Numbered from the stretch's first letter, positions 11,852 to 63,449 are shown. The stretch: 64,000 bases of DNA from Candidatus Methanomethylophilaceae archaeon (GCA_944320495.1 CALUHR010000002.1:1-64000); one strand, 5' to 3'. Notes: a model not told the origin generated them from the sequence alone. Translations and numbers: made by a program.

Positions 11852-12574
11852 ATGGAAGAGGCCTATCTCGTGGCGGCCGCCGTGATCATCTCGGCGATAA
11901 TGTCGCTCGAGGCGTACAAGCTCGGTTGCCTGACTAGGGACGGCGCCGTCGCCTCGTTCCTCGTCGGCGCCTTCGTGGGCGTCTTCGCATCGATCAACGC
12001 GTTCTTCCTCCTGGCGGTCTTCACGATCGCGGGATTCTTCGCCACAATGAGGGACATCGGTCGCAAGAAGGCCGAGGGGCTGCAGGAGGGCAAATCAGGA
12101 GAACGCAACTGGAAGAATGTGGCGGGAGTCGGCATACCGCCCTGCCTGATAGTCGCCCTCGCAGCACTGGGCATCATCGACCAGACCATGTTCGCGATCA
12201 TGTTCGTATCCACCATAACCGTGGCCGGCGCAGACACCATCGCCAGCGAGATCGGTGTTCGCGACAACAGAGTGTACATGATCACCACCGGCAAGAGGGT
12301 CGAGCCGGGCGTCAACGGAGGCGTGTCGCCCCTAGGCACCGCCACGTCCACGGTGGCCTCCCTGCTCATCGCCATCCTCGGCTGGGGAGTCGTCACGGAG
12401 TCCCTCGGATGGATGCTGCTGATCCCGTTCGCGATGGGAGTCCTCGGCAACCTTCTGGACAGCGCGTTCGGGGCAGTCCTGGAAAATCCCGGATACATCT
12501 CAAAATACACCAACAACTGCTCGACAGCCCTAATCGGAGCGGTCATCGGCCTCGCCATTTACCTGATTCTGCGA
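11852..12574 (+). CDS. DUF92/TIGR00297 membrane protein (ends at CGA 12572-12574; standard-code end 12595)
   Basis: GERNWKNV, ADTIASEIG, VEPGVNGGVSPLGT, DSAFGAVLE, NNCST motifs. The residues after CGA overlap the 5S TATA box. Confidence 0.9.
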
Positions 12575-12579
12575 TATCA

Positions 12580-12586
12580 TTATATA
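12580..12586 (+). promoter_or_regulatory. TATA box of 5S rRNA gene
   Basis: TTATATA about 25 nt upstream of the 5S start. Confidence 0.7.
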
Positions 12587-12607
12587 CTAGTGTGATATCC
12601 ACAGTCT

Positions 12608-12733
12608 TGGTAAGACGGCCATAGCGGCGGGGTAACACCCGGTCCCATTCCGAACCCGGAAGTAAAGTCCGCCCGCGTATCTGCCTGTACTGTAGTGCGC
12701 AAGCCTACGGGAACTCAGACACGCTGTCTGCCA
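12608..12733 (+). rRNA. rrf: 5S rRNA (not linked to 16S/23S)
   Basis: ACGGCCATAGCGGCGGGGTAACACCCGGTCCCATTCCGAACCCGGAAGTAAAGTCCGCC...; terminal helix TGGTAAGACGGC/GCTGTCTGCCA; T-tract follows. Confidence 0.97.
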
Positions 12734-12749
12734 CTTTTTCATATTCATC

Positions 12750-13110
12750 TTGTGGCCGAGAGGCTTCTTCGATTCCCGAGGAGATTCTTCGAGAATCCAG
12801 ACAGGCCCATGAGATAGTTCTCCGAGTTCATACAGCGCATGTGCGACACGCATACGCGCCCTCACCCCATGTGCAGGCCGTACAACTCCCTGAAACGGAT
12901 GCCACGGTCGAAACAACCCAGCGTGTTCTCGACATTCTTCGACAGCGCCAGACCAGCGAGCCCTCGACCTCCTCGGCGCCGTCGAAGGGCGTCTCGTCGA
13001 AAAACACACGGCATCCTACAACAATGTCTCCCTGTGCCTCAGGCCCCGCCCATTCTGATACAGTCGCCTATGTCGTCCGTGACGATGATGATAGGTGATC
13101 GCGGAACGGG
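12750..13110 (-). pseudogene. Possible decayed gene fragment (weak glycosyltransferase-family-2-like words)
   Basis: Protein-like segments in three different frames (PIIIVTDDIGD; QGDIVVGCRVFFDE; RFRELYGLHMG*...), broken by frameshifts and TGA. Identification is speculative. Confidence 0.25.
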
Positions 13111-13210
13111 ATCCAAGTGATATAATCATGACAGCCTTACTGTACAGGTCGTTGCGGGAGGCCACCCAGAAGTCCAGGGAATCTAGGCGTAATCGCCTGC
13201 GACCCGCGGA

Positions 13211-14548
13211 TCATCCGATTCCGCCGAGCAACGCCCCTGCCACCAAGGCCACAATGGCCAGTGCACAGTAGACGTACTTGCCGGTCGGGAAGAACCATCT
13301 GCCGATCGGTCTGTGGGCGCCCTCGTTGACGCTCTCCAGGACGTAGTCCCTTCCAGCGATCCAAAAGAACATGATCGCCGCTAGCAGGGCGCCCAACGGA
13401 CACACGTAGATCGAGACGGCATCCATCCACTGGGACACTATGGCCTGGATGCACAGACCGACGGCGCAGCCCAGGACGATGACGACGAGGGACGATGTGG
13501 CGCGGCTCCTGCGGAACCTCTCCTGGACGTAGGATATCGGCGCCTCGTACAGGTTGATCAGGGACGTCAGGCCGGCGAAGGTTACGCACAGGAAGAATAT
13601 CGCACCGATGATCTGACCGCCCGCCATCCCGTTGAAGACCTCAACCAGGTAGATGAACATCAGACCGGGGCCGGCGGTGTCCAGCTGACCTCCGGCGGCG
13701 GCCATGGCGGGTATGATGACCATCGCGGCCATCATGGCGCCGATGGTGTCGAACAGCGCCACGTATCTGGCACTGCTCGGTATCGATTCCTTCTTGGATA
13801 GGTACGACCCGTAGACGACGCTGCCGTTGCCCGCCACGGACAGGGAGAAGAACGCCTGTCCGAACGCGAAGACCCAGACGAGTGGGTTCAGAAGACCCTC
13901 CGGGTTGAGGGTGAAGATGTACTCGTAGCCGAGCTCGGAACCTGGCAGCGTGAAGATGTAGATGCCCAGGCCGATGAACAGGGCGTAGAGGATCGGGAGC
14001 ATGAACTTGTTCGCGCGCTCGATCCCTCCAGCCACGCCGAGTGACATGATCACGAGTGTGACGACCGCCGTCAGTATGACCCAGATGTTCGCGCCCCACG
14101 CACTGGCGGTGGAGTCGAACATGCCGACGATGGGGCCGAGCTCCTCGCCAAGCCCCACGAGGTCCCCCGAGAACGCCATGTATGTGTACTTCAGGACCCA
14201 GGCCATCACACAGGTGTAACCGATGGCCATGGCCAGGGACCCCAGGACTGGGATGATCCCTACGATCTCACCGATCCTCCTCTTCCCTATCCCCACCTCG
14301 GTGCACTTCCCGAATGCCCCCACCGGCCCGGAACGGGCCGAACGTCCGAGGGCGAACTCGGAGATCACGCCGGTGCTGGCTATGAGCACGACGAAGATGA
14401 AGTATGGGATCAGGAAGGTCAGTCCGCCCCATATGCAGACCATGATGGGGAAACGCCAGATGTTCCCCATACCCACGGCGGACCCGATGCAGGACATGAT
14501 GAAGCCGCGCTTGGATGTGAATTCCTCGCGCTCGACCTCTTCCACCAT
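13211..14548 (-). CDS. Sodium-dependent transporter, SNF/NSS family
   Basis: IGSAVGMGNIWRFP...GGLTFLIPY; AFGQAFFSLSVA; about 12 TM helices. Confidence 0.95.
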   Translation of the reverse strand: MVEEVEREEFTSKRGFIMSCIGSAVGMGNIWRFPIMVCIWGGLTFLIPYFIFVVLIASTGVISEFALGRSARSGPVGAFGKCTEVGIGKRRIGEIVGIIPVLGSLAMAIGYTCVMAWVLKYTYMAFSGDLVGLGEELGPIVGMFDSTASAWGANIWVILTAVVTLVIMSLGVAGGIERANKFMLPILYALFIGLGIYIFTLPGSELGYEYIFTLNPEGLLNPLVWVFAFGQAFFSLSVAGNGSVVYGSYLSKKESIPSSARYVALFDTIGAMMAAMVIIPAMAAAGGQLDTAGPGLMFIYLVEVFNGMAGGQIIGAIFFLCVTFAGLTSLINLYEAPISYVQERFRRSRATSSLVVIVLGCAVGLCIQAIVSQWMDAVSIYVCPLGALLAAIMFFWIAGRDYVLESVNEGAHRPIGRWFFPTGKYVYCALAIVALVAGALLGGIG

Positions 14549-14743
14549 TTTATACAATCCTGCCTGTATATGGACCATTGGGGTTTGACAGATATAACCT
14601 TTCTTTCCAGGACGGCCCGATGTGGACGGATGCGTCCTGCAGAATCGTCGTGACAATGAGGGTTTTACCGTGACGGCAGGAAGGTGCCTACCATCACGGC
14701 ATGGGACCGACTCCATGCGGGTACCTCGCACTTCGCCCGAGCC

Positions 14744-15316
14744 TCATTCGGTCGGCACATCGCCGATCTTCCTCGCAGGAGAGCCGGCAACGATGGTGTT
14801 CGGCGGGACGTCGTGGGTAACCACTGAGTTCGCGCCGACGATGGAGTTGTCGCCGATGGTCACGCCCGGCAGCACCGTTGAGGCGATGCCGATCCACACG
14901 TTTCTCCCGATGGTGATCGGAGCTCCATATGTGCAGTTGCGCTTGGACGGCTCCACAGGGTGGTTGATGGTGATCAGGTTCACCTTGGGGGCGATGAACG
15001 TGTTGTCGCCGATGGTGATGCCGCAGCGGTCGAAGAAGGTGCAGCAATGCTGAATCAGCACGTTCTTGCCGACCCTCAGGTTCCTCCCGAAGTCCATGTA
15101 GAACGGAGGGAACAGGGTCAGGGTCTCATCGACCTCGGTCCCGGTGACCTCCGCGAACACCTGCCTGACCTCGTCGGCGCTCATCACCGACGAGTTCATC
15201 CTCTGGAGTTTGGCCATCGTGTCGCGGATGACGTCGTATATCAGATGGAAGTCGGGGTCGTCCATGGAGGCCACCTCCCCGGACCTGTCGCGCTCGAAGA
15301 TATCCTTCTCTGTCAT
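14744..15316 (-). CDS. Sugar (maltose/galactoside) O-acetyltransferase, hexapeptide repeat
   Basis: PPFYMDFGRNLRVGKNV...ITIGRNVWIG...VTIGDNSIVGANSVVTHDVPPNTIVAGSPA. Confidence 0.92.
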   Translation of the reverse strand: MTEKDIFERDRSGEVASMDDPDFHLIYDVIRDTMAKLQRMNSSVMSADEVRQVFAEVTGTEVDETLTLFPPFYMDFGRNLRVGKNVLIQHCCTFFDRCGITIGDNTFIAPKVNLITINHPVEPSKRNCTYGAPITIGRNVWIGIASTVLPGVTIGDNSIVGANSVVTHDVPPNTIVAGSPARKIGDVPTE

Positions 15317-15388
15317 GCGGATGACAAGGGCGTCCAATTAAAAAACATATAGTCACCAAAATATGGTTCAGGTAACGATATGTTATCG

Positions 15389-15402
15389 GGGCCCGAAGGC
15401 CC
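15389..15402 (-). terminator. GGGCC-UUCG-GGCCC hairpin 3' of por operon
   Basis: Perfect 5-bp stem with cUUCGg loop, about 15 nt after the porB stop. Confidence 0.7.
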
Positions 15403-15417
15403 CGTGAATTGGTTTTA

Positions 15418-16365
15418 TCAGAGCTCGGTGAGCTTGATGAGCCTCTCCCAGCGCCTGTCGACCTCCGCCTGGTAGGCCTCGACGATGGGCTCGGCCCTCT
15501 CGGTCATGAGGTGCTTGAATCTGCCCTGGGCAGCGAACCAGTCGGTGATCGGCTTCTTCTCCGCCTTACCGGCGGCGATCCTGGCGCTCTCGGCGGTGAG
15601 GGCATACTTGCCGTCGACGACCTCGAACAGGGGCCAGACGCAGGTCTCGACCGCGAGCTTCGCGATCTCGATGGTGCGGTCGGAGGGGAACCTCCATCCC
15701 CTGGGGCACGGGGAGATGGCGTTGATGAACGCCGGCCCGTTGGCCTCGAATCCCTTGGACGCCTTGGTCACGGTGTCCCTCCAGTTGTGGGGGGAGACCT
15801 GGGCGACGTAGGGGATGTTGTGGGCGACCATGATGGACGTCATGTCCTTGGAGTACTCCTTCTTTCCCATCTGGACCGATCCGGCCCAGGAGGTGGTGGT
15901 GGAGGCTCCGAGGGTGGTCGCGGAGGACCTCTGGATTCCCGTGTTCATGTACGCCTCGTTGTTCATGCAGACGTACATCATGCGGTGTCCCCTCTCCATG
16001 GCTCCGGACAGGGCCTGGAGTCCGATGTCGTAGGTCGCACCGTCTCCGGCGAAGTTGACGAAGCGGATCTCCTCGTCGATCTTGCCCTTCTTCTTCAGGG
16101 CGTTGTAGGCGGTCTCGAGACCGGCGCAGGTGGCCGCTCCGTTCCCGAACGCGGTGTGGATGTACGGGACGTTCCACGAGGTGTACGGGAACACGGTGGT
16201 GGAGACCTCCATGCAGCCGGTGGACAGGGACACGGCCACCTCGTCGGAGGTGCCCATGAGGATCTGCTTCGCGATGATCGACTCCGCGCATCCGGCGCAG
16301 AGCCTGTGGCCGCTGGCCAGCCTGACCGGCAGCTTGTTGAGCTCCTTGAGAGACAGAGAGGTCAT
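15418..16365 (-). CDS. porB: Pyruvate:ferredoxin oxidoreductase beta subunit
   Basis: GHRLCAGC, STGCMEV, AGDGATYDIG, NNEAYMNTGIQRS, SPCPRGW. Confidence 0.95.
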   Translation of the reverse strand: MTSLSLKELNKLPVRLASGHRLCAGCAESIIAKQILMGTSDEVAVSLSTGCMEVSTTVFPYTSWNVPYIHTAFGNGAATCAGLETAYNALKKKGKIDEEIRFVNFAGDGATYDIGLQALSGAMERGHRMMYVCMNNEAYMNTGIQRSSATTLGASTTTSWAGSVQMGKKEYSKDMTSIMVAHNIPYVAQVSPHNWRDTVTKASKGFEANGPAFINAISPCPRGWRFPSDRTIEIAKLAVETCVWPLFEVVDGKYALTAESARIAAGKAEKKPITDWFAAQGRFKHLMTERAEPIVEAYQAEVDRRWERLIKLTEL

Positions 16366-17525
16366 ATCTTCACCCCCAGGTAGGTGATGCGCTTGGCATC
16401 TCCGGAGGCGACGGCCTCCATCATCTTCTTGAATCCGGCGACGGTGGCGTCGGCGCCTCCGAGACCGTAGATCACGTTGTACATCTTCGGCACATCGCCG
16501 TTGAGAGTGGCGGCGGTGACGACCTCGGGGAACATGGGGCCGTACGCTCCGATGCTCAGGTGCTTGTCGAACACGGCGACGGCCTTCTTGCCCGCCAGGA
16601 TCTTGGCGAGGGCCTCCTCCGGCCAGGGCCTGTAGACATGGGGCATGCAGCATCCGACCTTGATGCCCTCGTCCCTCAGCTGGTCGACGGTCTCCTTCAT
16701 GGTACCGTAGGAGGATCCGAGGATGACGGCCACGTAGTCGGCGTCCTCGCACCTGTACTGGTCGACGAGATGGTACTCCCTTCCAGTCAGCTTGGCGAAC
16801 TCGGCGAAGACCTCCTCAGCGACCTCCAGGGCCTTGTCCATCGCGAGGACGGACTGGACCTTGTGCGGGTAGTAGAAGTCGGGTCCGTCCATGTTGCCGT
16901 GGGACACTGGGTGCTTGGTGTCGAGCAGGGGGTACAGGGGCTTGTACTCGCCGACGAACGCCTTGACGTCGTTGGTGTCGATCATGGTCATCCTCTCGAT
17001 GGCGTGGGTGAGGATGAATCCGTCCAGGTTGACCATGCAGGGCAGCTGGACGTCGTGGTGCTCCGCGATGCGGGGCGCGATGATCGAGTTGTCGTACGCC
17101 TCCTGGACGTTCTCGGAGAACAGCTGGAGCCAGCCGGTGTCGCGTCCGGACATGGCGTCCCCGTGGTCGTTGTTGATGTTGATGGGTCCGCTGACCGCCC
17201 TGTTGGCGACGGCCATGATGAGCGGGGTGCGCATGGCGGCCGTGATGGGGAGCATCTCCCACATGTAGGCGAGCCCCTGAGAGGCGGTGGCGGTGAATGT
17301 CCTGGCTCCGGCGGAGCACGAGGACGTGCACAGGGTCAGCGCGGAGTGCTCGGACTCGACGCAGACGAACTCTGTGGAGACCTCCCCGTTTGCCACGTAC
17401 TCGGCGAACTTCTCGACGATGATGGTCTGGGGGGTGATCGGGTACGCTGCGCACACATCGGGGTCGATCTGCTTCCACGCGAGGGCGACCGCGTTGTCTC
17501 CGTTGATGGCTATGTCGTGGCTCAT
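16362..17525 (-). CDS. porA: Pyruvate:ferredoxin oxidoreductase alpha subunit
   Basis: AYPITPQT, VESEHSA, TATASQGL, NRAVSGPININNDH. Confidence 0.95.
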   Translation of the reverse strand: MSHDIAINGDNAVALAWKQIDPDVCAAYPITPQTIIVEKFAEYVANGEVSTEFVCVESEHSALTLCTSSCSAGARTFTATASQGLAYMWEMLPITAAMRTPLIMAVANRAVSGPININNDHGDAMSGRDTGWLQLFSENVQEAYDNSIIAPRIAEHHDVQLPCMVNLDGFILTHAIERMTMIDTNDVKAFVGEYKPLYPLLDTKHPVSHGNMDGPDFYYPHKVQSVLAMDKALEVAEEVFAEFAKLTGREYHLVDQYRCEDADYVAVILGSSYGTMKETVDQLRDEGIKVGCCMPHVYRPWPEEALAKILAGKKAVAVFDKHLSIGAYGPMFPEVVTAATLNGDVPKMYNVIYGLGGADATVAGFKKMMEAVASGDAKRITYLGVKI

Positions 17526-17527
17526 CC

Positions 17528-17803
17528 TCACTCCTCCTTCATTGTGATGGCGCCCTTGGGGCAGACCCTGGCGCAGATGCCGCATCCCTTGCAGTGGCTC
17601 ATCTTGATTCCGGACATCTTGTCGTCCCTGAAGACGATGCTGTTGTCGGGGCAGTAGATCCAGCATGTGTAGCAGTCGATGCACTTGTCCTGGTCGACGA
17701 CGGGGACGTAGCTCCTCCAGTCCCCGGTGGCGAAGTTCTCGGAGGAACCGGGCTTGATGATCCTGCCTCCGACCACGAGATCCTTGATGTTTGCCATTGC
17801 CAT
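17528..17803 (-). CDS. porD: Pyruvate:ferredoxin oxidoreductase delta subunit
   Basis: TGDWRSYVP, CIDCYTCWIYCPD, CKGCGICARVCP. Confidence 0.95.
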   Translation of the reverse strand: MAMANIKDLVVGGRIIKPGSSENFATGDWRSYVPVVDQDKCIDCYTCWIYCPDNSIVFRDDKMSGIKMSHCKGCGICARVCPKGAITMKEE

Positions 17804-17804
17804 G

Positions 17805-21303: not shown

Positions 21304-22014
21304 ATGGGAGAATGGAAGGAGGCTCTGACCAAGGCATTCCCCTACACCATACCGGTGCTGGCGGGATATCTCTTCATAGGCGGAGCCTTCGGCGTCATGT
21401 TCGCCGACGAGGGCTACAGCGTCCTCTGGGCCATCCTCATGAGCATCGTCGTCTACGCCGGGTCCGGACAGTACCTGGCCACCACGTTCTTCGTTCCCGG
21501 TTTCTCGCTGGTGCAGGCAGCGTTCCTGACGATCATGGTCAACATCAGGCACGTGTTCTACGGCCTGTCCCTGGTGGACCGCTACAACCGCTACGGGAAG
21601 AAACGCTGGTACATGGTGTTCGGGATGACCGACGAGACCTACTCGCTCATCTGCACCACCGACGTCCCGGAGGGCGTGAGCGAGGAGAAGTTCCTGTTCT
21701 CGATCACGCTGCTGGACCAGCTCTACTGGATCCTCGGAACGATCGTCGGATCCCTGCTGATGTCGACCTTCGGATTCAACTCGGACGGGATCGAATTCGC
21801 CATGACGGCGCTGTTCATCGTGATGTTCATGGAGCTCTGGTACAGGCGCACGAACCGTCCGGCGGAGCTCATCGGCGCCGGTGCGTCCATCGTGTGCCTG
21901 GTGGTGTTCGGTGCGGACGGCTTCGTCCTTCCGGCGATGCTCCTGATGATCGCGATAATCCTGATCGCCCGCAGGAGACTGGACAGGAACACGGGAGGCG
22001 AGACGAATGCTTGA
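21304..22014 (+). CDS. azlC: AzlC-family branched-chain amino-acid transporter permease
   Basis: AFPYTIPVLAGY, YAGSGQY, MVNIRHVFYGLS, FGMTDETYS, FAMTALF. Confidence 0.95.
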   Translation: MGEWKEALTKAFPYTIPVLAGYLFIGGAFGVMFADEGYSVLWAILMSIVVYAGSGQYLATTFFVPGFSLVQAAFLTIMVNIRHVFYGLSLVDRYNRYGKKRWYMVFGMTDETYSLICTTDVPEGVSEEKFLFSITLLDQLYWILGTIVGSLLMSTFGFNSDGIEFAMTALFIVMFMELWYRRTNRPAELIGAGASIVCLVVFGADGFVLPAMLLMIAIILIARRRLDRNTGGETNA

Positions 22015-22339
22015 TCCGATACCCTCCCTGATAATGATCGCGGTGGTGGCCGTGGCGACCTTCGCCACTCGCGCCGCATCCTTCATCGCCTTCCCCAAGG
22101 GGAGGGAGATACCCCCGACCGTGAAGTACATCGGAGCCGTGCTCCCGCCGGCGGTGATCGGGATGCTCGTAGTGTACTGCCTCAGGTCCACGGAGGTCCT
22201 GGGATACCCGTACGGCATCCCCGAGCTGATAGCGTGCCTGGTCGTGATAGGGCTTCACGCCTGGAAGAGGAACGTCATCCTCAGCGTTGGGGTCGGCACC
22301 GTGCTGTACATGGCGCTGATACAGGCGGTGTTCGTGCGA
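22007..22339 (+). CDS. azlD: AzlD-family small subunit (ends at CGA 22337-22339; standard-code end 22591)
   Basis: ...LHAWKRNVILSVGVGTVLYMALIQAVFV then CGA, 2 nt from the stop of the convergent gene. Confidence 0.92.
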
Positions 22340-23184: not shown

Positions 23185-23332
23185 CAGACCCCGAATCGGC
23201 GTTCGAGACATATAATCACTCACACATGGAGTTGATTGCCGACAAGGCGATTGGTCGTCGAGCAGACGGCGGGACCGTTGCATCAGAACGGATGTACGCT
23301 CACCGGACCGTGGCCGCCGGTGAGCGGCTACG

Positions 23333-23842
23333 TCGGACCCTGAACCTCCAGGGCCTGGTCCGGTCCTCCTCCGACGCATACCCGATACCGATGCGAGGGG
23401 ATGCGGTGTATCCCGGACGGCACCCGTTGTCTTCCATCCAGAGCACCCCGTCCGGAGACATCTCCGAGCCGTACATCGAGAGCTCCAGGCCCAGCTCCCT
23501 GCCGACCCTTCCCGGACCGTCGAAGCCGTCCACGCCACGAACCAGGACGCCCTCTGGATGGCCCTCATGTCCGGTGACAATGGTCAGCAGGTTGAACATA
23601 TGGCATCTGTGAACGTATGCCAGACCGCCCGATTCGAACATTATCCTCGCACGTCCGGTGGGACAGCGATGGGCATGACATGCCGTATCCTCCATCCCGT
23701 AGTAGATCTCGGTCTCCGTGACACGGTACCTGCGGACCCCGTCCAGGAAGCGACGGCAAAGGAGCTTTCCCAGCATGTCCGGGGCCAGCTCCGTCGCGGG
23801 ACGCGCGTAGTACGACCTATCCAGAACCGCCGAGTCGGCCAT
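23333..23842 (-). CDS. mpg: 3-methyladenine DNA glycosylase (ends at CGA 23335-23333; standard-code end 23300)
   Basis: LLGK-like LGKLL, VTETEIY, DTACHA, VLVRG..GPGR, SPRIGI...PWRF. Confidence 0.92.
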
Positions 23843-27779: not shown

Positions 27780-28412
27780 TCGGACACCGGTCCTGTTGCC
27801 CCAGATGATCTTGTGGAGCTGGGGCAGCACCCTGACGTCGAGATGCTCCTCGAGTACCCTGTAGACCAACCTCTCGAGGTTCACGGTCCCCCCTACGGGG
27901 CCGAATATGACGTTGGTCCTGGAATCGAGACCGCGACTCCTCACGAATCCCACGGCATAGTCCAGGTCCCCCTCGTCCCCGATGACGAACTTGAGCTGGT
28001 CCTTCCTACCGAGTAGGTCCAGGTTGGACTCCAGCATGCTGCCGGTGGAACCTGACAGGGGGCACTTCCAGTCCATGCTTATGAGGACCGCATCGTCCCT
28101 CGGGACCCCGGACAGGTCCACGGAACCGTTGGTCTCCAGGTCGATGGACCTCCCCATGGACAGGAGCCTGTCCATCAGCTCTACGGCGTCGGGCTGGAGC
28201 AGGGGCTCCCCTCCGGTGAGACAGACGCGGGGGCAGTCCCCCACCTCTTCCAGGATGTCGTCGACGGACATGTCGCGCCCGCCCTCGAAGGAGTAGCCGG
28301 TGTCGCACCAGCTGCAGCGGAGGTTGCACCCGACGGCGCGGACGAACACGGTGGGGAGCCCCATCTGGAGCCCCTCGCCCTGTATCGAACGGAAAATCTC
28401 ACAGATCCTCAT
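27780..28412 (-). CDS. queE: 7-carboxy-7-deazaguanine synthase (radical SAM) (ends at CGA 27782-27780; standard-code end 27768)
   Basis: EIFRSIQGEG, GCNLRCSWCDT, LTGGEPLLQ, ETNGS, PQLHKIIWGNRTGV. Confidence 0.95.
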
Positions 28413-29095
28413 TGCAGGTTCTCGCCGTGCTCGTACTCGATCTCGTCCACGTAGCCGGCCTCCTTGAAGCCCTGGAGCCTCAGGCGGCAGGAGTCGCAGT
28501 GGCCGCAGGCCTTCTCCCCGCCGTTGTAGCATGACCATGTGAGGTGCAGCGGGGCGCCCAGCCTCTTGCCCCTGCGGACGATGTCCGCCTTGGAATCGTG
28601 CAGGATGGGCGTGACGATCCTGATGGGATTGCCCTCGACGCCCGCCTTGGTACCCACGGCGAGCATCGCCTGGAAGGCCTCGTAGAACGCGGGGGTGCAG
28701 TCTGGATATCCGGAGAAGTCGACGGAGTTCGCGCCGATGTATATCCTGTCGGCGTCCACCGACTCGCACAGCCCGGCTGCGATGCTCAGGAACACGATGT
28801 TCCTGGCGGGGACGTACGTGACCGGGATCTTGGAGCTGAGCTCCCCTTCGCGGTCCATCGGGACGTCGATGTCCTTCCTGGTGAGCGCCGAGCGGAACGA
28901 GCTCAGGTCGAGGTCGATGACCACGTGGTCCACGTCGTAGAAGTCGCACACGGCCTGCGCGGACTCCAGCTCCCTGGTGTGCCTCTGGCCGTACCTGAAG
29001 CTGATGGCGGTGACCTCGCAGCCGTCCTCCAGGGCCTGTGCCAGGCACGTCGTGGAATCCAGCCCTCCCGAGAGCAGGACGACGGCCTTCGGCAT
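28409..29095 (-). CDS. queC: 7-cyano-7-deazaguanine synthase
   Basis: LLSGGLDSTT, YGQRH, TYVPARN, SGYPDC, TWSCY..GEKACGHCDSC. Confidence 0.97.
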   Translation of the reverse strand: MPKAVVLLSGGLDSTTCLAQALEDGCEVTAISFRYGQRHTRELESAQAVCDFYDVDHVVIDLDLSSFRSALTRKDIDVPMDREGELSSKIPVTYVPARNIVFLSIAAGLCESVDADRIYIGANSVDFSGYPDCTPAFYEAFQAMLAVGTKAGVEGNPIRIVTPILHDSKADIVRRGKRLGAPLHLTWSCYNGGEKACGHCDSCRLRLQGFKEAGYVDEIEYEHGENLQ

Positions 29096-29568
29096 CGGAG
29101 CACCTCGGTGTACCAGGCGGTCTGGCCGCGCTCCTCGTCGAGTCCGACGGAGACGGTCCTCACGTTGGGCGGGAACTCCACATCGGCGACGAGCCTGAGC
29201 GTCATCATCTTGGCCATCTCCTCGGCGGTGGTGTTGGGGACGTCGAGCAGCGTGACGTCCATCCTCGGGAACACGTAGCGCTTCCCGCAGGACACGGCCT
29301 CCACGGACTCCTCGTCGTATGTCACCTTCACGTCCTGTGACGCCGTGGGGACCAGGGTCTTGTGGTCGAGCTCCTCGATCATCGCCTTCAGGGCCTTCTT
29401 CAGGACCACGAAGTCCATGATCATGCCCTCCTCTCCTATGTCCCCCTCCAGCCTGAGCCTCACGATGTACGAATGCCCGTGGAGCCTGGAGCACTTCTCA
29501 TGCCTGGGTATGAAATGGCACGCGGAGAACCTAATCCCCGAGTAGCCTCCGTCGATCTCAAGTATCAT
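29095..29568 (-). CDS. queD: 6-carboxytetrahydropterin synthase (ends at CGA 29097-29095; standard-code end 28903)
   Basis: FSACHF, CSRLHGHSY, MDFVVLK, LDHK, TTAEEMA. Confidence 0.95.
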
Positions 29569-33775: not shown

Positions 33776-34069
33776 TCGGAACTTCTTCTGGCAGAGGGAC
33801 GTCCACGTCCTCTTGTCGGTGAGGACCATCACCCCTCCGCGGATGTCTACCACGATGCATCCCGTGGCCTCCGCGATGGCCTCTGCGGCGGTCCTCACGT
33901 CGTCGTCGGAGTTCGAGAGAACCTTCGCCTTGATCAGGCGGTTCTTCTTCAGCTGCGCCGTGACCTCGTCGAAAACCCCCTGATCGAGGCCGTCCTTGCC
34001 GACCCTGACGGTCGGGCTGATATCGTTGGCGCGCCTCATCAGCTCCTTCTTGGCGTCCTTCTCGCTCAT
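33776..34069 (-). CDS. yhbY: YhbY/CRM-domain RNA-binding protein (ends at CGA 33778-33776; standard-code end 33758)
   Basis: PTVRVGKDGL...QLKKNRLIKAKVL; 97 aa to CGA. The CGA overlaps the GAGGT RBS of serS. Confidence 0.9.
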
Positions 34070-46922: not shown

Positions 46923-47780
46923 TCGTCCGGACCTGCGGACTGCCATGACCGCGATCGCCATGAACAGGGCGGTGACTGCGAGCGAGTACACCAGGGACGC
47001 GACCGCCGAGAACTCGAATCCTCCCAGCGCCAGGTCGAACCCCATGTCCGTCCTGAAGCCCTCTAGGACATCCGCGGGCGCTCCGGAGAACACGTCCCCA
47101 AGGGCCTCGGAGCACAGCGCCTCACGGAACAGCGCGGCCATCTGGCTGGCCGGGACCAGAGTCCCCACGACCTGCATCGCCTCTGGCATGGTGCCCATCG
47201 GCATGTAGATGCCAGACAGGAACCCGATCATCACGCTGACCACGGTGAAGAACCCGGAGAACGCCCCGGTGCTCCTGATGAACGACACCATCGCATACAC
47301 GATTACCGAACCGGTAAGAGCCGAAGGTACCAGGAGGACGATGCACTCCGCGACACCGGCGGCGGACAGCGGGCAGCCCACGGCGACCAAGTACGCGAGG
47401 CATATCACAAGAGCGATCAGGCTCATGACCAGGCCGGACGCGAAGGTGCTCAGCACGTGACCACCGACGACCTCCCACCTGCTCAGGGGCGTGACGGCGA
47501 TGTCCCTGTCCCTTCCGGACACACGGTCCTCGACCATGGTCTGCAGCGAACCCGCCGAGGCCGTGACGGGGACGATGCCCAGGATGCCCGCCATCACCCA
47601 TGCGTCGATGAGATGGGGCATCCCGTCCATCTCCGGGTACGAGGAGATGAGGATGTCCCTCAGGAACAGCAGGTACAGCAGCACCACGATGAGGACGGCC
47701 ATCAGCGAGAACAGGACCGACTGCCTGTCGCGAAGATAGCACAGGGTGTTCCTCTTCGCCAGTGCCAGCATCCCGCTCAT
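46923..47780 (-). CDS. ABC-2 transporter permease (ends at CGA 46925-46923)
   Basis: MLALAKRNTLCYLRDR...GFLSGIYMPMG...; 285 aa, last TM followed by RRSG and CGA. Confidence 0.9.
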
Positions 47781-48703: not shown

Positions 48704-48836
48704 TGTGGGACTCCCCCGGGTCGGAACGTGACAGACCGGCGAAACCGGAACACGGACCTCGGATATCAACCAACCGATGGAGTGCTATGGAGAACTGGCT
48801 CTTGGTATGATGAAAATTGAAGAAAAAGGAAATGAG

Positions 48837-48909
48837 TGCTCCCGACGGGATTTGAACCCGTGTCGAAGCCTCGAGAGGGCTTCATGATTGGCCGCTACAC
48901 TACAGGAGC
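48837..48909 (-). tRNA. tRNA-Glu(CUC)
   Basis: GCTCCTG acceptor, anticodon arm AAGCC-CT CTC GA-GGCTT, GGTTCAAATCC. Confidence 0.95.
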
Positions 48910-48953: not shown

Positions 48954-49736
48954 TCGGAAGTCACTCGGGCGGATCGCAGGCAGTCTCTTGTGCTCCATGG
49001 ACCTCACCTGAGCCCTGATTCTGGCGATTTCGGACAGTTCGAGACCCGTGTCTGCGGCGATCTGCGAGTCTGAACAGTCACGCTCGAGATCGAACAGGAT
49101 GCCGTCGAGATCCTCGTACCTGATGCCCATCTCCGACTCGTCAGTCTGTCCCTCCCAGAGCCCGGCGGACGGGGGCTTGGCGATTATGTCCTCCGGGACG
49201 CCGATGATCCTGGCCAGCTGCCTGACCTCGGTCTTGTAGAGGTTGGCGAGCGGAGTGACGTCGCATGCGCCGTCGCCGAACTTCGTGAAGTATCCCATCA
49301 TGATCTCGCTCTGGTTCGACGTACCGAACACCAGGTAGTCTCTCTTCTTCGCCATGTTGTACAGGACGATCATCCTGCATCTGGCGGAGATGTTTCCCCT
49401 CTCCAGAGGCGTCTCCTTCCCGGACAACAGGACCGCCGCCAGGGCGTCCACCGCGGGCTGGATGTCGACCACCTTGTACTCGGCCCCCCACATCGAGCTC
49501 AGTTCCGAGGTGACCTTGTAGTCCTCGGCGGGCGTCACACGGGAGGGCATGAAGATGTTGAGCACCCTGTCGGGACCCAGCGCGTCCGCGCACAGTTTGG
49601 TGACCGTGGCGGAGTCCAGACCTCCGCTGAGACCGACCACCGCTCCCTTGCATCCCGTGCGCTCGGCGGTGGTGCGGATGAATGAGACGAGGGCATCAGC
49701 ATCCTCTCTGGTGACCTGCGGGATCTTGGACGACAT
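48954..49736 (-). CDS. nadE: NH3-dependent NAD+ synthetase (ends at CGA 48956-48954; standard-code end TAG 48900 lies inside the tRNA)
   Basis: VGLSGGLDSA, GNISARCRM, GTSNQSE..MGYFTKFGDG, KPPSAGLWEGQTDE, MEHKR. Confidence 0.95.
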
Positions 49737-51273: not shown

Positions 51274-52276
51274 GATGAGGGTTTTCATCTGCGGATTCGG
51301 AACAGTGGGACAGGGCTTCTGTGAGGTCCTGGCCGCCCGCCGCCAGTTCCTCATAGACCGCTACGGGGAGCCAGTCACCGTCGTCGGGGCCATGGATTCC
51401 AAGACCTACGCCTACAACCCGAACGGGTTCGACCCCCTGGAGCTCGTCTCCGTCAAGCAGGGGACGGGGAGGGTCGGCACTGAGACGTACCAGGACTCCG
51501 TCGAGGTCCTCTCCGGAGCGGAGTTCGACATCCTCGTTGAGGTCAGCCCCACCGATGTGAAGACCGGCGGAGCCGGACTCAGGAACATAGAGTACGCGCT
51601 CGGCAACGGGAAGGATGTCATCACGGTCAACAAGGGCCCGCTGGCCCTGAAATTCCGCCATCTCATAGACCTGGCCGAGAGCAACGGATGCTGCCTCCGC
51701 TTCGAGGGATCCGTCGGCGGCGCCATGCCCATCATCAACCTCTGCCGCGACAACCTGGCCGGAGAGAGGATAGAATCCATACGCGGCATATTCAACGGAA
51801 CATGCAACTTCATACTCAGCAAGATGGACACCGGACAGCCGTTCGAGCAGGTCCTCAAGGAGGCCCAGCAGATGGGCTACGCCGAGACGGACCCGACAAA
51901 CGACATCGAGGGGTACGACAGCGCGTGCAAGGTCGTCATCCTCGCCAACGCCGTGTTCGGCCGCGACGTCACGTTCAACGACGTGAGGATCACCGGCATC
52001 ACATCGATCACCGAGGACGCCATCTCCCTGGCCGCCTCGCACAACATGGTCATAAGGCTCATAGGTGAGGTCTCCGAGAGCAAGCTGGAGGTGGGGCCCA
52101 GGCTCGTGCCCAGAGGACACCCCCTCGGCATCTCTGGGACACTGAACACCGCCCAGATCCTGTCCGACCTCGCCGGACCGGTAACGGTCACCGGCAGGGG
52201 TGCTGGCAGGATCGAGACCGCCTCGGCGATACTGAGCGACCTCATATCCATCATGGACGAGAGGGCGAGACGGCGA
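51266..52276 (+). CDS. hom: Homoserine dehydrogenase (CGA 52274-52276 directly before TGA 52277-52279)
   Basis: [61 protein letters not shown]. Confidence 0.96.
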
Positions 52277-58198: not shown

Positions 58199-58220
58199 GA
58201 ATTGAAAGAAAGAAGAAAGG

Positions 58221-58293
58221 TGGACAGGGCGAGATTCGAACTCGCGGCCTCTACCATGCCAAGGTAACGATCTTCCAACTGATCTACCTGCCC
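58221..58293 (-). tRNA. tRNA-Ala(GGC)
   Basis: TTACC-TT GGC AT-GGTAG anticodon arm; GGGCAGG/CCTGTCC acceptor with G3:U70. Confidence 0.95.
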
Positions 58294-58320
58294 AGCAAAT
58301 TGTGGATAGTTTCCTAGTAT

Positions 58321-59742
58321 TTATAAGTTTGTTTTGTCGAAGTCCTGGACGAGGTTGGTCTGGAACCTGTGGACCTCTCCGGGGATCGAAGTGGGGTATT
58401 TTCCATTCACACAGGCCAGGCAGAGGTCGGCCTCCTTGAACCCGATGGCCTCGACGAGGCCCTCGATGCTGATATAGCCGAGACTGTCCGCGCCGATGAT
58501 CTGTCTGATCTCCTCGACACTGTGCTTGGTCGCTATGAACTGGTCGCGGGTCTTCATGTCCACACCGTAATAGCACGGCGCGATGATCGGCGGACTGCCG
58601 ATCCTGACATGGATCTCCTTCGCTCCGGCGGACCGGAGCATCTGGATGAGCTTCTTCAGGGTGGTACCCCTGACGATGCTGTCGTCGATGATCATGATGC
58701 GCTTGCCGCTGACCGTGCTCCTGATGGGATTCATCTTCATGGAGACGGCCTGCTCCCTCTGCTTCTGGTCGGGCATGATGAAGGTCCTCTCGGCGAAGCG
58801 ATTCTTCATGAAGCCCTCCTCATAGGGTATGCCTGTCGCGGCTGAATAGCCGATGGCGTGGGCGCGTCCGGAATCGGGGATGGGCATGACCAGGTCCACA
58901 TCTGCGGGGCATTCCCTCGCCAGGATCTCGCCGATGCGCCTGCGCACCTCGTATACCTCGCTCCCGTCGATGACGGAATCGGGACGTGCGAAGTAGACCC
59001 ACTCGAACATGCAGTAGGCCTTGGGATGCTGACCGACCGCGGGATAGATCTTGAACGTGTCCTTGGTGATCTCGCAGATCTCCCCGGGTTCGATGTCGCG
59101 GACGAACTCCCCGTGGAGCGCGTCGATGGCAGCGCTCTCCGACACGGCGATGTATCCCCCGTCGAGCCTTCCGAGGCACAGAGGCCTGAATCCGTAGGGG
59201 TCGCGGATGGCGAACAGCCTGTCGTTGATGAGGATCGTGAGAGCGTACGCCCCGTCGAGCTCGCCCATCGCGGCCCTGATCGCCTTGACCGGGTCGTTGT
59301 ACATGGTCATGTACTTGCCCAGGAGCTTGGTGACCAGCTCGCTGTCAGAATCCGTGAGGAAGGTCCAGCCCTCCTTCATGTAGCGGTCCTTCAGCTCGGC
59401 GAAGTTGGTGATGTCGCCGTTGTGCGCGACGGCCACGGTACCGAAGTTGGTCATGACCGTGAGCGGCTGAGCATTCACTATGCTCTTGGAACCGGTCGTG
59501 GAATAGCGGACGTGGCCGACACCGACGTGGCCGACCGCGGCCTGCACATCCGCCTTGGGGAGGGCCAGATTGACCAGCCCGTTCCCCTTGAGGGTGTCTA
59601 TGGAGGCGCCGTTGAAAACGGAGATGCCGGCGCTCTCCTGCCCGCGATGCTGGATGATCATGAGGGCCGTGTAAAGCGACGGAGCGACATCGTAGTCGGC
59701 GCTGATGCCGACAACGCCGCAGCTGTGCTTTGGCCCTGTCAT
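58321..59742 (-). CDS. purF: Amidophosphoribosyltransferase
   Basis: CGVVG, QHRGQESAG, GHVRYST, AHNGDI, CMFEWVYFARPDS, IDDSIVRGTT. Confidence 0.97.
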   Translation of the reverse strand: MTGPKHSCGVVGISADYDVAPSLYTALMIIQHRGQESAGISVFNGASIDTLKGNGLVNLALPKADVQAAVGHVGVGHVRYSTTGSKSIVNAQPLTVMTNFGTVAVAHNGDITNFAELKDRYMKEGWTFLTDSDSELVTKLLGKYMTMYNDPVKAIRAAMGELDGAYALTILINDRLFAIRDPYGFRPLCLGRLDGGYIAVSESAAIDALHGEFVRDIEPGEICEITKDTFKIYPAVGQHPKAYCMFEWVYFARPDSVIDGSEVYEVRRRIGEILARECPADVDLVMPIPDSGRAHAIGYSAATGIPYEEGFMKNRFAERTFIMPDQKQREQAVSMKMNPIRSTVSGKRIMIIDDSIVRGTTLKKLIQMLRSAGAKEIHVRIGSPPIIAPCYYGVDMKTRDQFIATKHSVEEIRQIIGADSLGYISIEGLVEAIGFKEADLCLACVNGKYPTSIPGEVHRFQTNLVQDFDKTNL

Positions 59743-59755
59743 GAGGATCCCTCGA

Positions 59756-59926
59756 TCAGTCGCGGATCTTAGCCCAGTTGTAGGACCTGATGGTTGCGGT
59801 CTTGCCGTACCCGCAGGAGGCGCAGACGCCCTTCCTGACGTGGTAGGCGCGCTTGCCGCACCTGCGGCAGGGGATGTGAGTCTTGTACTTGTTGTGTTTT
59901 CCCTGTGCGGGTGTTCCCTTTCCCAT
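59756..59926 (-). CDS. rpl37e: 50S ribosomal protein eL37
   Basis: Not in ORF track in this frame. [56 protein letters not shown]. Confidence 0.95.
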
Positions 59927-60040
59927 GATCATCACTCCAGTGAATCGTGAGCGCCATCTCTCACACGCGTACGCGTGCTATACTGGACGGCGGATGGGCC
60001 TGCCTATAGGCAGGCATTATTTGAAGGTATCTGCCGGGCG

Positions 60041-61153
60041 TCAGACGAACGCGCCGATGGTGGGCGCGTCCAGACGGTCCATGTCGTAGAAGATGATGGC
60101 CTCCCTCATGCCCTCGGCGCCGCATCCGGTGCCCATGAAGTGATCGAGCAGCGACATCCTCCAGAGCAGGTCCATGATCGACACGGACAGGCACCCATAA
60201 TAGGAGTTAGACATGTCGTCCTCGTAGCCGTTCTCGTCCATCAGGGAGAAGACGCTCCCCATGAAGCTGTCCCTGGAGTTCAGCGTACGTATGTAGTCCC
60301 TCAGGACCGCGGCACCCTCCTGGTCGGGCACCCTGAGCCGGACGTCGGCGGCGTCGGCGAACGCCTTGTGGTGGAGCTCGCCCTCGTCGTCCATGACCAT
60401 CCACTCGACGGTGCCGTCCACGGCCATGAACATGTTCCAGTTCCACTGCGGGTCGCAGTACACCGGAACGCTGAGCGGATCCTCGGAGCCCATGGACTCC
60501 ATCGCGGACTCCATCCCCGCCTCCTGCAGGGACGCCATGTCAGGCTCCCTGTCCGGCTGGATGGCGCGGAGGGACATCACCGGCTCGATGGAGGCGGCAT
60601 CCATGATCCTGCCCAGGTACGAGATGTCGGAGAACATGGCGAGGTTCTCGGACACGGACATCCTCAGACCGGAGGGGTCCACCATCACGCCGGCCTCGCG
60701 GCAGTTGGCGTAGAACTCCGTGTAGACGGCCTTGGACTCCGCCATCGCGGCGTCCGCCCTCGATGATGCCAGCGCCACCACGGAGCGGGCCTCGTCCATG
60801 GCGCTGACGCCGCTGCCGGTCCAAGCCCCCCTGCATGAGAGGTCGAGCTCGACCTGCAGACGGTCGCTGGCGTAGAGGTGGAACGGGAACTGGCGGCAGT
60901 AGGCCGGCCTGTCCTTGTACACGGAGCACCTCCTCCCGTTGAGGAACGTGCAGGAGCCGCGGCCCTTCTTCAGCGCGAGCGCGGTGTAGGGCTCCGGACC
61001 CCTGGATCTCACGAGCGCCGAGGGGTGGTTCCTCTTGAAGAACGGGCGCTCCTCCGGAAGGACCTCCGGCTGGCACAGGCAGCACATGCCGCACTGAGGG
61101 GGGCACTCGACGAGCCTCCCCGATATCTCTGAGTAATCGACCTCGTAGTCCAC
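60041..61153 (-). CDS. YkgJ/UPF0153 Cys-cluster (Fe-S/Zn) protein
   Basis: CPPQCGMCC...CTFL..RRCSVYKDRPAYCRQFPF; GTG start at 61153. Confidence 0.85.
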   Translation of the reverse strand: MDYEVDYSEISGRLVECPPQCGMCCLCQPEVLPEERPFFKRNHPSALVRSRGPEPYTALALKKGRGSCTFLNGRRCSVYKDRPAYCRQFPFHLYASDRLQVELDLSCRGAWTGSGVSAMDEARSVVALASSRADAAMAESKAVYTEFYANCREAGVMVDPSGLRMSVSENLAMFSDISYLGRIMDAASIEPVMSLRAIQPDREPDMASLQEAGMESAMESMGSEDPLSVPVYCDPQWNWNMFMAVDGTVEWMVMDDEGELHHKAFADAADVRLRVPDQEGAAVLRDYIRTLNSRDSFMGSVFSLMDENGYEDDMSNSYYGCLSVSIMDLLWRMSLLDHFMGTGCGAEGMREAIIFYDMDRLDAPTIGAFV

Positions 61154-62411
61154 GGACGTCCCTTCCGATTGGTTCGCCGCAGAACTCTCCGTCCCGTACT
61201 TGAAGGCTTCCCCTGACGCAGACGCATCTCGGGAAGACGGCCGGGAACCCCCCGTAGGGGGAGTGGCCACACCTGCTGTGCAGACGGGGCACGTCTATGG
61301 GTGCGGACCGCCTGAGGTCGAAGATCGCGAGGTCCGCATCGTAGCCCTCGGCAATCCTGCCCTTGGGGACGTCGAACAGCCTGCCGGCGTTGTACGATCC
61401 CATCCTGACCGCCTCGGACAGCTGGAGATCGCCCCTGCGGACCATCTCCATCATCATGGGCACCGCCGTCTCCACACCCGGTATGCCTGACGGCGCCTCG
61501 GCGAACGGACGGTCCTTCTCGTCGGCCGCATGGGGCGCGTGGTCGGTCCCGAGCATGTCGAACCCGCCCCCCATGAAGAGGGCGCGGAGGGCCTCCCTGT
61601 TGCGGGCGTCCCTCAGCGGGGGGTTCACCTTGTACTCGGCGCCGGGGTTGCGATCGGCGTCGAAGGTGATGTGGTGCATCGTGCATTCGGTGGAGAAGCC
61701 TGCATCCCTCGCCATGGCCAGACCCTCTGGGGTGGTCAGATGGCAGATGTTGATGCTGGATCCGCGGAAGTTCGCGGCCAGTCTGGAGATGGCCTTCCAC
61801 TCCGCTTCGGCCGGACGGTTCCTCAGGTGGTCCCTGCAGCACCGCTCCTCCCCCTTCGATATGAAATGGTCGTCCTCAGCGTGGACGCTCATGCGCCTGC
61901 CGGTGGCGAGCACGTCCCTGACCGCCGGGATCATCTCCTCGTCGTCGTCCAGGAGGATGTTCCCAGTCGTCGATCCCATGAACAGCTTGAACCCCACGAC
62001 GAGCGGCGCCAGCATCCCGGCGTTGATTCCCGCGGTGACCGCCGCGAACAGACCGTAGTCCGTGACGGCCTTCCTGCCGACGACGGCCTTCTTCTCCGTG
62101 AACGTGCGGACGTCGGTGACGGGCGGCACGGTGTTGGGCATGTCGTACACGCAGGTCACTCCCGCGTGGACCGCAGCTAGCGTCCCGGTGCCGAAGTCCT
62201 CCTTCCCGGTCATCCCGGGGTCGCGGAGATGCACATGTGGATCGATGAACCCGGGCAGCATGACGTCGCTGGTCCCCAGCTCGATCCTCCTGTCCCCTCC
62301 ACGCACCATGCTGCCTACGGAGACTATCCTCCCGTCACAGATCCCGACCTCGGTGTACCTGAGCTCCCCGTCGACGAGGGCCCTGCCGCACACCACGGTC
62401 TCGATGTCCAA
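61143..62411 (-). CDS. pyrC: Dihydroorotase (ends at CGA 61145-61143; standard-code end 60540)
   Basis: PGFIDPHVHLRDPG, DMPNT, KLFMG, HAED, KVNPPLR, GTDHAPH, GIPGVET; 422 aa; TTG start. Confidence 0.93.
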
Positions 62412-62997
62412 TGTCCTCCCTCCGGACGATGTCGCCGCGCGGGGTGGTCTCGCGCCAGGCCTCGCCCGTGAAGGTCTCTATCCTGGCCCCCTCGCGCCTC
62501 CATGTTCCCGGCGGGAGACCCGCCTTCATGCAGAGATGGTCGAGGTACTCCTCCTTGTCCCAGCCCTGCTCAACGGGGACCTGCGGGAGGAACAGCCCTC
62601 TGCGGCCCATGAACGATAGTATCAGCCCGTCGCGTCCGATGACGATGCTCTTCAGAATCCCCTCGGGCGTGTCCGCGCGTATCGCCTCCGGCCTGCTCAG
62701 GACGGTGACCTCGACGGTCACGCCGCCGAGCTCCCCGGGGGACAGGCGGGGGAACCTCGGATCGTTGCAGGCGGATCCGGCCGCCTCGACGATAGCCCTG
62801 CCCAGCGGCATCACGGGCATGGGGATCCCTATGCATCCGCGGAGCTCTCCGGCTGGGAACGTGTCCAGGGTGACGAACGCCCCTGCGGAGTCCGAGAAGG
62901 CGCCGATGTCGGGGATCGCCGGTGCCGGACGGCCCGAGGCCTCGGCCTCCACGGCCGATCTGGCCAGTCTAACTGCCTCCTCGCCCTGGAGCATCAT
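62401..62997 (-). CDS. AMMECR1-domain protein (ends at CGA 62403-62401; standard-code end 62335)
   Basis: GAFVTL...LRGCIG...DPRF...EVTVLS...GRDGL...GLFLPQVPVEQGW..EEYL..LC.KAGL. Confidence 0.93.
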
Positions 62998-63449
62998 CGC
63001 TCACCGACACCCTTGAAGACGCCGTCCGCGTCCCTGCGGTCGTCGGAGACGATCTCGACCCTCTTGGGGGCCTCCCTGCGGCATTCGTGGGCCCTGCAGG
63101 CGGCGTCCTTCATGGTGGCCTCGGTGCTGCGGAACCCGTCCCTGACGGGAGCCGGCATGGGAGCGCGCTCCATCAGGGCGCTCATGCCCATGAAGAACTC
63201 CAGGCCCATGTTCACGAAGTGCCTCTGCACCTCGGGGTCTGTGAATGCCGAATAGGCAGTGCGGGCGAGGTCCTCCGCCCTGGCGCGGGACTCGTCGGCG
63301 AATCCCCTGGCGTGCCCGTAGGCCTGCCTGGCCGCGTCCCTCTCGGCATCGACGAACTCCCTGGCGGCGCTCTTCTGCGTCTCGATCATCCTCTCTATGA
63401 GGTCCCTGTTGTTTGCGACGAACGCCTCGAACTCTTCATCTGTGGTCAT
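62997..63449 (-). CDS. Hypothetical helical protein downstream of ArsA-like ATPase (CGA 62999-62997 directly before TGA)
   Basis: 150 aa, A/E/R-rich; translationally coupled on both sides. Confidence 0.78.

Follow-up and report, generated by a model that had tools for sequence, protein, structure and literature searches.

CGA as a Probable, Partly Leaky Fourth Stop Codon in a Genus of Methanomethylophilaceae

Introduction

The stretch of DNA described here, 64,000 nucleotides (nt) from a Candidatus Methanomethylophilaceae archaeon (GCA_944320495.1, CALUHR010000002.1:1-64000; hereafter the window), represents positions 1-64000 of contig C2 in a genome of 1.77 Mb, 62% GC, 14 contigs and ~1,500 genes (hereafter G000). 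The organism is a gut-type methanogenic archaeon which we take to be a member of genus g1 of the family Methanomethylophilaceae, order Methanomassiliicoccales. The subject of this report is the codon CGA, which a first-pass annotation of the window had proposed to act as a stop codon in place of its standard arginine meaning. Judging from gene ends, orthologs, the cognate tRNA and the archaeal release factor aRF1, CGA is very probably a fourth, partly leaky stop codon in this genus.

Gene Ends in the Window

The first-pass annotation had listed 13 genes of the window in which the first in-frame CGA falls at the usual C-terminus of the protein family. An in-frame CGA occurs at all 13 sites, of which 11 are informative; at the other two (hom and the neighbor of ArsA) TGA directly follows CGA, so that arginine followed by a stop is indistinguishable from a stop at CGA itself. 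The sites are given below together with the extent of profile matches and, for some genes, the end of the ortholog in G013, a member of the same genus whose orthologs are 83% identical to those of G000 at the amino acid level.

11852-12574, plus strand: DUF92 gene, CGA at 12572..12574; next standard stop 7 codons on; G013 ortholog ends within 1 residue.
22007-22339, plus strand: azlD, CGA at 22337..22339; AzlD profile matched to position 98 of 99 at residue 104, CGA at codon 110; read through, an 84-codon tail would overlap a gene on the opposite strand.
23842-23333, minus strand: mpg, CGA at 23333..23335; CGA is codon 169 of 180, with TGA 10 codons later (23300-23302).
28412-27780, minus strand: queE, CGA at 27780..27782; G013 ortholog ends at exactly the same position.
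29568-29095, minus strand: queD, CGA at 29095..29097; PTPS profile matched to position 119 of 121 at residue 154, CGA at codon 157; reading on would add 64 codons.
34069-33776, minus strand: yhbY, CGA at 33776..33778; the end of the G013 ortholog matches exactly.
34385-34062, minus strand: rnp4/Rpr2, CGA at 34062..34064; Rpr2 profile matched to position 90 of 90 at residue 93, CGA at codon 107; 103-codon tail if read on.
47780-46923, minus strand: ABC-2 permease, CGA at 46923..46925; ABC2 profile matched to position 276 of 283 at residue 279, CGA at codon 285.
49736-48954, minus strand: nadE, CGA at 48954..48956; NAD_synthase profile matched to position 240 of 242 at residue 252, CGA at codon 260; the tail would enter a tRNA-Glu gene (48836-48909).
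52274..52276, plus strand: CGA as penultimate codon of hom, context CGG CGA TGA; uninformative.
About 62411-61143, minus strand: pyrC, CGA at 61143..61145; 201-codon tail if read on.
62997-62401, minus strand: AMMECR1, CGA at 62401..62403; AMMECR1 profile matched to position 167 of 168 at residue 180, CGA at codon 198.
62997..62999, minus strand: CGA as penultimate codon of the ArsA-neighbor gene, context GAG CGA TGA; uninformative.

Pfam matches stop upstream of CGA at 12 of the 13 sites, the ArsA neighbor being without a family match. The distance from the end of the profile to CGA is 3 to 22 residues in eight genes and larger in mpg, queE, and pyrC. As the first-pass annotation had stated, reading CGA as arginine yields long tails (up to 201 residues), overlaps with neighboring genes and false fusions. 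In one of these the ABC-2 permease continues in frame into a glyoxalase-family gene, with the glyoxalase domain starting at residue 302. The short overlaps that result from reading CGA as a stop are likewise as described: 1 nt at queD (29095), where the final A of CGA belongs also to the ATG of the next gene (CGATG), 8 nt between rnp4 (34062) and the start of yhbY (34069), and 11 nt between pyrC (61143) and the start of the next gene (61153). The statement that gene bodies are free of internal CGA holds for every gene of the window and fails genome-wide, in the aRF1 gene and in an open reading frame (ORF) that joins SIS and HAD domains.

Distribution of CGA in the Genome

Genome-wide counts in G000 were based on ORFs predicted with the standard code alone and with no assumption on CGA; a second calling with four stops, CGA included, gave 1,385 genes. 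Along the standard-code ORFs the number of in-frame CGA codons per successive tenth is 4, 1, 4, 5, 4, 6, 16, 25, 62, and 326, so that 326 of the 453 lie in the last tenth (chi-square about 2000), whereas CGG, CGT, AGA, TCA, CTA, and other codons, rare ones included, are evenly distributed. This count by relative gene position, suggested in the first-pass annotation, supports its proposal, and CGG, which it had noted at conserved arginine sites, is an ordinary, rare arginine codon, flat along genes. Nearly all of the 41 standard-code ORFs that contain CGA in their first 80% are either two genes fused in frame or ORFs whose start was called too far upstream.

The depletion depends on the reading frame. 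Over the initial 70% of gene length there are 0.12 CGA per 1000 codons in frame, compared with 17.8 and 69.9 in the two remaining frames; the trinucleotide is therefore 150–580 times more common out of frame, a signature which is the same as that of TGA. Since the depletion is frame-specific, the effect acts on codons and not on nucleotides. Downstream of CGA the coding signal is lost: for the 110 tails that are 10 codons or longer, a score based on codon usage falls from +0.37 upstream to -0.50 downstream, and tails reach up to 404 codons when read on.

Depending on the set considered, from 207 genes (strict set) to 324 of the 1,385 genes (four-stop calling), that is about 16–23%, end at CGA, and such genes are found on all contigs. 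CGA ends are scarce among the most codon-adapted genes, with 9 of 266 in the two highest tenths and 198 of 1064 elsewhere (p = 6e-12); with codon adaptation as a proxy for expression, this scarcity fits a terminator that is weaker or slower than the standard ones. T occupies the +4 position after 57% of CGA ends and after 29% of TGA ends, and 28% of CGA ends form a CGATG stop/start overlap.

The 33-kb contig C4 carries one CGA end among 35 well-scoring genes, compared with 15–36% on large contigs elsewhere in the genome; the low share may be due to high expression of its genes or to a foreign origin of the DNA.

Gene Ends in Orthologs and Relatives

As the first-pass annotation had also suggested, gene ends were aligned with those of homologs, and orthologs stop at the position of CGA, mostly with TGA. 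In G013, 32 of 39 orthologs end within 2 residues of the CGA of G000 (177 of 192 in control genes without CGA), and in G008 21 of 34 do so. Where ends align exactly, the codon opposite the CGA of G000 is TGA (11), CGA (7), or TAA (1) in G013 and TGA in all 13 cases in G008. In G018, which is 98.9% identical to G000, it is CGA in 14 cases and TGA in 4, and a TGA of G000 stands opposite a CGA of G018 twice; these swaps in both directions between such close relatives indicate that the two codons can replace each other at gene ends within a very short time.

The profile of CGA by tenths is the same in G018, G013, and G008 as in G000; its occurrence in four separately assembled genomes argues against an assembly artifact, and the trait belongs to the genus and not to G000 alone. 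The share of genes ending at CGA climbs with GC content, from about 4% in G008 (54% GC) to about 10% in G013 (58%) and 16–23% in G000 (62%). Outside the genus (the M. alvus-like and other sister genera were sampled at 100 kb each) two situations were found. CGA is used at 1.9–4.0 per 1000 codons and evenly spread in other families of the order and in g21, a basal genus of this family, and at 0.04–1.2 per 1000 in the remaining genera of the family, where it is a sense codon that does not cluster at gene ends. For sister genera in which the codon is nearly unused the range is 0.04–0.65 per 1000. This order of events is the one expected for codon capture, in which CGA would have nearly vanished before returning as a stop in g1.

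The Cognate tRNA

The first-pass annotation had supposed that the lineage lost the tRNA that decodes CGA. This is not the case: the gene is present in G000 and conserved throughout the genus.

C13:413317-413390 (L054:1501-1574): tRNA-Arg(UCG), called with ARAGORN.

Across the genus the UCG anticodon and the cloverleaf are kept, and five stem pairs show compensatory changes. The anticodon arm is unusual in several respects. Pair 31-39 is unpaired in 18 of 18 aligned genus sequences, leaving a 4-bp anticodon stem; U32 and C38 occur in G000 and G018 alone, and all other sequences have C32 and A38; and in the tRNAs of G008, G015, and G059 the loop reads CCUCGAC, the nearly universal U33 being replaced by C. 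The corresponding tRNA of an M. alvus-like relative in the same family has a normal 5-bp stem and the loop CUUCGGA. Thus tRNA-Arg(UCG) is under selection yet atypical where decoding strength is set, and it may read CGA weakly. A blastn result in which 25 of 61 genus genomes appeared to lack this tRNA was misleading: a covariance model built on a hand-given cloverleaf recovered divergent tRNA(UCG) genes in G008, G015, and G059.

In-Frame CGA Codons Inside Genes

CGA is not an absolute stop. Its occurrence inside the essential aRF1 gene and at the junction of the SIS-HAD ORF implies some degree of decoding. The loci concerned, together with a third gene that contains an internal CGA, are as follows.

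C2:85936-87195 (L002:679-1941), minus strand: aRF1 gene, outside the window.
C2:86932-86934 (L002:1678-1680), minus strand: in-frame CGA of the aRF1 gene, Arg88, 20 codons after the NIKS motif.
C13:193618-194700 (L213:1096-2175, minus strand in L213): ORF with SIS (GmhA-like) and HAD (GmhB-like) domains, CGA at the domain junction.
C8:55331-55840, in L233 (C8:54110-57304): flavodoxin-like gene, CGA inside the conserved motif GKTI-x-PFCT.

The CGA at Arg88, which aligns with human Arg81, is the only one in the aRF1 gene of G000, and exactly one in-frame CGA is found in this gene in each of the 16 complete sequences available from the genus. Among the 19 conserved arginine columns of aRF1 in these 16 genomes CGA appears in the Arg88 column only, in 15 of 16; a partial locus from G012 has CGA at the same arginine. 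The context is constant (GCT or TCT, CGA, CTN). The exception is G005, a basal member of the genus, with lysine at the Arg88 site and its single coding-region CGA at a site 33 codons upstream of the NIKS motif, termed here NIKS-33.

Of 27 genomes sampled from other genera of the family, 21 also have a CGA in the aRF1 N-domain at one of a few fixed sites, at NIKS-33 in 16, at NIKS-47 in 4 and at NIKS-31 in 1. NIKS-33 is the arginine directly before the equivalent of the GTS loop and is encoded by CGA across g13, g15, g17, g20, and g22; in g12 and g14 the codon stands at NIKS-47, a third site. In the 100-kb sample of g13 the CGA of aRF1 is the only one in any called gene. Because the codon is purged elsewhere but fixed in the release-factor gene, it is suggested, by analogy with bacterial RF2, that it serves as a feedback sensor of termination versus decoding.

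Seventeen genomes have CGA as the junction codon of the SIS-HAD ORF and four have TAG; in five others the two domains are encoded by separate overlapping genes with TAA. The segment from the junction to the catalytic motif of HAD holds no conserved start codon, so that the fusion product needs read-through; the arrangement suggests a programmed read-through giving two products.

The Release Factor aRF1

G000 encodes one aRF1 and one Pelota. Inspection of the aRF1 N-domain, also recommended in the first-pass annotation, gave a mixed picture, with standard NIKS and YxCxxxF motifs on the one hand and, on the other, a methionine next to NIKS and a serine in the equivalent of the GTS loop. The residue four positions after NIKS is Met or Leu in the family and Arg in outgroups (Gln in one family); g21, with its normal use of CGA, is the only genus of the family that keeps Arg. 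In G000 this residue, Met75, aligns without gaps with Arg68 of human eRF1, and among 130 diverse aRF1 representatives 112 have Arg at the equivalent position, 10 have Lys, and 3 have Met. Free-energy calculations by Lind, Oliveira and Åqvist indicate that Arg68 holds the NIKS loop and predict that Arg68Ala cuts the penalty for C at the first codon position from about 6 to 1–2 kcal/mol, CGA having been tested explicitly (PMC5681627). The change of Arg68 to Met may thus provide a concrete mechanism for the reading of CGA, bearing in mind that the computation concerned a human Ala mutant and not Met.

The sequence GRSTE, in which Ser replaces the Gly of GRGTE at the equivalent of the GTS loop, was seen in G000 and G018 and in no other genome examined. 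A 351-residue aRF1 homolog with Met at position 68 is encoded at L278:340-1395 on a metagenome contig of 37% GC, beside an integrase, a recombinase and many small unknown genes, and may be a release factor borne by a virus or mobile element; the contig of a third Met68 aRF1 is only 2 kb long. In five aRF1 representatives (P0075, P0102, P0129, P0086, and P0001) the position of Arg68 is taken by Gly, Ser, Gln, or Asn; two of these proteins also show NIKD in place of NIKS, and all five possibly represent further lineages with altered stop reading.

Mechanism and Alternative Explanations

CGA is nearly absent from gene bodies, coincides with homologous C-termini, swaps with canonical stops and is followed by a loss of coding signal, as is typical of a stop codon; as in codons of dual meaning, it is also found at conserved internal positions (aRF1 Arg88 and the SIS-HAD junction). 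The explanation which we consider likely is that CGA is read mainly as termination, the outcome being decided by competition between aRF1 and a weak tRNA-Arg(UCG). In this model the single aRF1, with Met in place of the Arg68 predicted to enforce U over C at the first position, would itself read CGA and compete in the ribosomal A site with the atypical tRNA. Termination would win at most CGA codons, leading to the purge of in-frame CGA from gene bodies; under GC pressure TGA stops could then drift freely to CGA, and the residual decoding as arginine would be used at a few conserved sites (aRF1, SIS-HAD). The CGA of the aRF1 gene may be regulatory.

A more far-reaching version, plausible but held with clearly less assurance, is that CGA is a true dual-meaning codon set by a relaxed aRF1 and a deliberately weakened tRNA, with both the aRF1 sensor and the SIS-HAD read-through depending on it, and that the sensor dates back to the base of the family, preceding the general use of CGA as a stop.

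Several points weigh against termination by aRF1 as described. The evidence is drawn from sequence throughout, and the gene calls come from a crude custom caller instead of an established gene-finding program. Backup in-frame standard stops downstream of CGA showed no significant enrichment (p = 0.16). A conserved cognate tRNA(UCG) is unlike the situation of the usual stop codon, which has no decoding tRNA, and short anticodon stems raise near-cognate reading in other systems. In the flavodoxin-like gene CGA stands where the orthologs of G004 and G039 have AGG, which may be an instance of rare use as sense or a sign of gene decay. Met68 was rejected as the sole cause, given that in sister genera with Met or Leu CGA remains a sense codon, rare and evenly spread; on the unrelated metagenome contig L278, whose aRF1 homolog has Met68, CGA is in normal use (7.7 per 1000). 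Among the routes offered by the first-pass annotation an altered aRF1 is nevertheless the best supported, by the Met at the Arg68-equivalent position, although this substitution alone is insufficient.

The strongest of the alternatives, and still an unlikely one, is that CGA is an effectively unassigned, "hungry" codon at which a scarce or poor tRNA causes stalling, followed by rescue through Pelota/ABCE1 and peptidyl-tRNA hydrolase. The atypical anticodon arm of tRNA-Arg(UCG), the avoidance of CGA ends by highly adapted genes and the presence of Pelota in G000 are in agreement with this idea. To our knowledge, however, Pelota has no peptide-release motif, and stall-and-rescue would be a costly way of ending about a fifth of all proteins. 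The conserved single CGA in the aRF1 gene and the change at the Arg68-equivalent residue point instead to the release factor. Slow decoding of CGA in yeast does give truncated products (PMC7379694), yet the same source ascribes the truncation to eRF1.

Editing of the terminal CGA by a C-to-U change in the mRNA, which would restore a normal UGA and had been offered as a possible route by the first-pass annotation, is highly improbable. CGA and UGA are one C/U change apart, CGA and TGA interchange between orthologs, and the preference for T at +4 could be part of a recognition motif. The avoidance of CGA is strictly confined to frame 0, though, to which an editing enzyme would be blind, and a site-specific enzyme would create no need to purge in-frame CGA elsewhere; the CGA codons of aRF1 and SIS-HAD must in addition stay readable, and we know of no such mRNA editing system in archaea. 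That CGA is simply arginine, with the pattern produced by assembly errors or tolerated C-terminal extensions, can be practically dismissed: the existence of tRNA-Arg(UCG) and the TGA directly after CGA at 2 of the 13 window sites are what speaks for it, against the recurrence of the pattern in four separate assemblies, the non-coding tails with their neighbor overlaps and false fusions, the ends of orthologs at CGA, and the fact that a normal sense codon is not expected to be absent from gene bodies and concentrated at homologous ends.

Related Systems

In vertebrate mitochondria (AGA/AGG) and in green-algal mitochondrial codes (PMC6821328, PMC12574857) a former sense codon likewise marks gene ends and is purged from gene bodies. 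The vertebrate mitochondrial case also lies within the arginine codon family. Organelles differ in that their genomes are tiny, carry few genes and usually lack the cognate tRNA, in contrast to a free-living organism with about 1,500 genes, in which the tRNA is kept and read-through sites are conserved.

The bacterial RF2 gene (prfB) is autoregulated through an in-frame UGA. As proposed here for aRF1, a release-factor gene holds, at a conserved place, the target codon of its own product, an arrangement that lends itself to negative feedback. The two cases differ in that prfB needs a +1 frameshift, whereas in aRF1 the frame simply continues and the arginine is a conserved residue, its regulatory function being putative.

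Yeast eRF1 can act on CGA, the sense codon nearest to UGA, when decoding is slow; in yeast this represents error or rescue at artificial CGA repeats (PMC7379694), in contrast to the normal gene ends considered here. In two metagenome-assembled genomes (MAGs) of Njordarchaeales, CGG has been proposed to encode tryptophan and CGA raised as a possible stop (Melnykov, 2026, bioRxiv 10.64898/2026.04.02.715157). These are also archaea in which CGA is absent from recognizable domains, but they belong to another phylum, tRNA(UCG) was not found, CGG is reassigned, and the preprint gives no positional or ortholog evidence for termination.

In the codes of the ciliates Condylostoma and Parduczia (PMC4967479) and in Blastocrithidia (PMC12153298) one codon likewise both terminates and is decoded, depending on context and on competition between release factor and tRNA. 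Shortened anticodon stems, as found here, play a part in Blastocrithidia. In these eukaryotes a canonical stop gained a sense meaning, whereas here an archaeal sense codon gained the meaning of stop.

Within the order Methanomassiliicoccales UAG is an ambiguous stop/pyrrolysine codon. CGA would be a second codon of this kind in the same order, and TAG replaces it at the SIS-HAD junction in four genomes; the direction is the opposite one, since UAG is a canonical stop that gained sense through a dedicated tRNA and synthetase.

No report of CGA as a stop in Methanomassiliicoccales was found in the literature searched, the possibility raised in the preprint concerning Njordarchaeales only. CGA as a stop is not yet established for any free-living organism.

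Significance and Additional Observations

Changes from sense to stop are known only from organelles, and a well-supported cellular case would extend the limits within which the genetic code is seen to evolve. The sister genera provide what appear to be intermediate stages, in which the codon becomes rare, the release factor is changed, one sensor codon is placed in aRF1 and wide use as a stop follows; if the dual-meaning version is correct, they hold a step-by-step record of a sense codon becoming a stop. The residue equivalent to Arg68 may set the discrimination between U and C at the first position of stop codons. In practical terms, translation table 11 mis-annotates 16–23% of the proteins of the genus, with false tails, false fusions and hidden neighbors that spread into databases of gut and rumen methanogens. 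Genetic code engineering, for which this family has already provided the PylRS/tRNA pair of M. alvus that is in wide use, could also profit from a naturally occurring fourth stop or codon of dual meaning.

The Pelota gene of G000 (L001:1483-3360, about 21184-23061 on contig C1) itself ends at CGA, its last residues being ILRYRL; translated with table 11, it continues without a break into the neighboring HMGL-like gene (homocitrate/isopropylmalate synthase family), giving an open frame of 858 residues. TAG is rare as a stop in G000, where TGA dominates: it ends 1 of 68 genes in the window and 13–53 genes genome-wide, depending on the calling method, a rarity that fits a pyrrolysine-using lineage.

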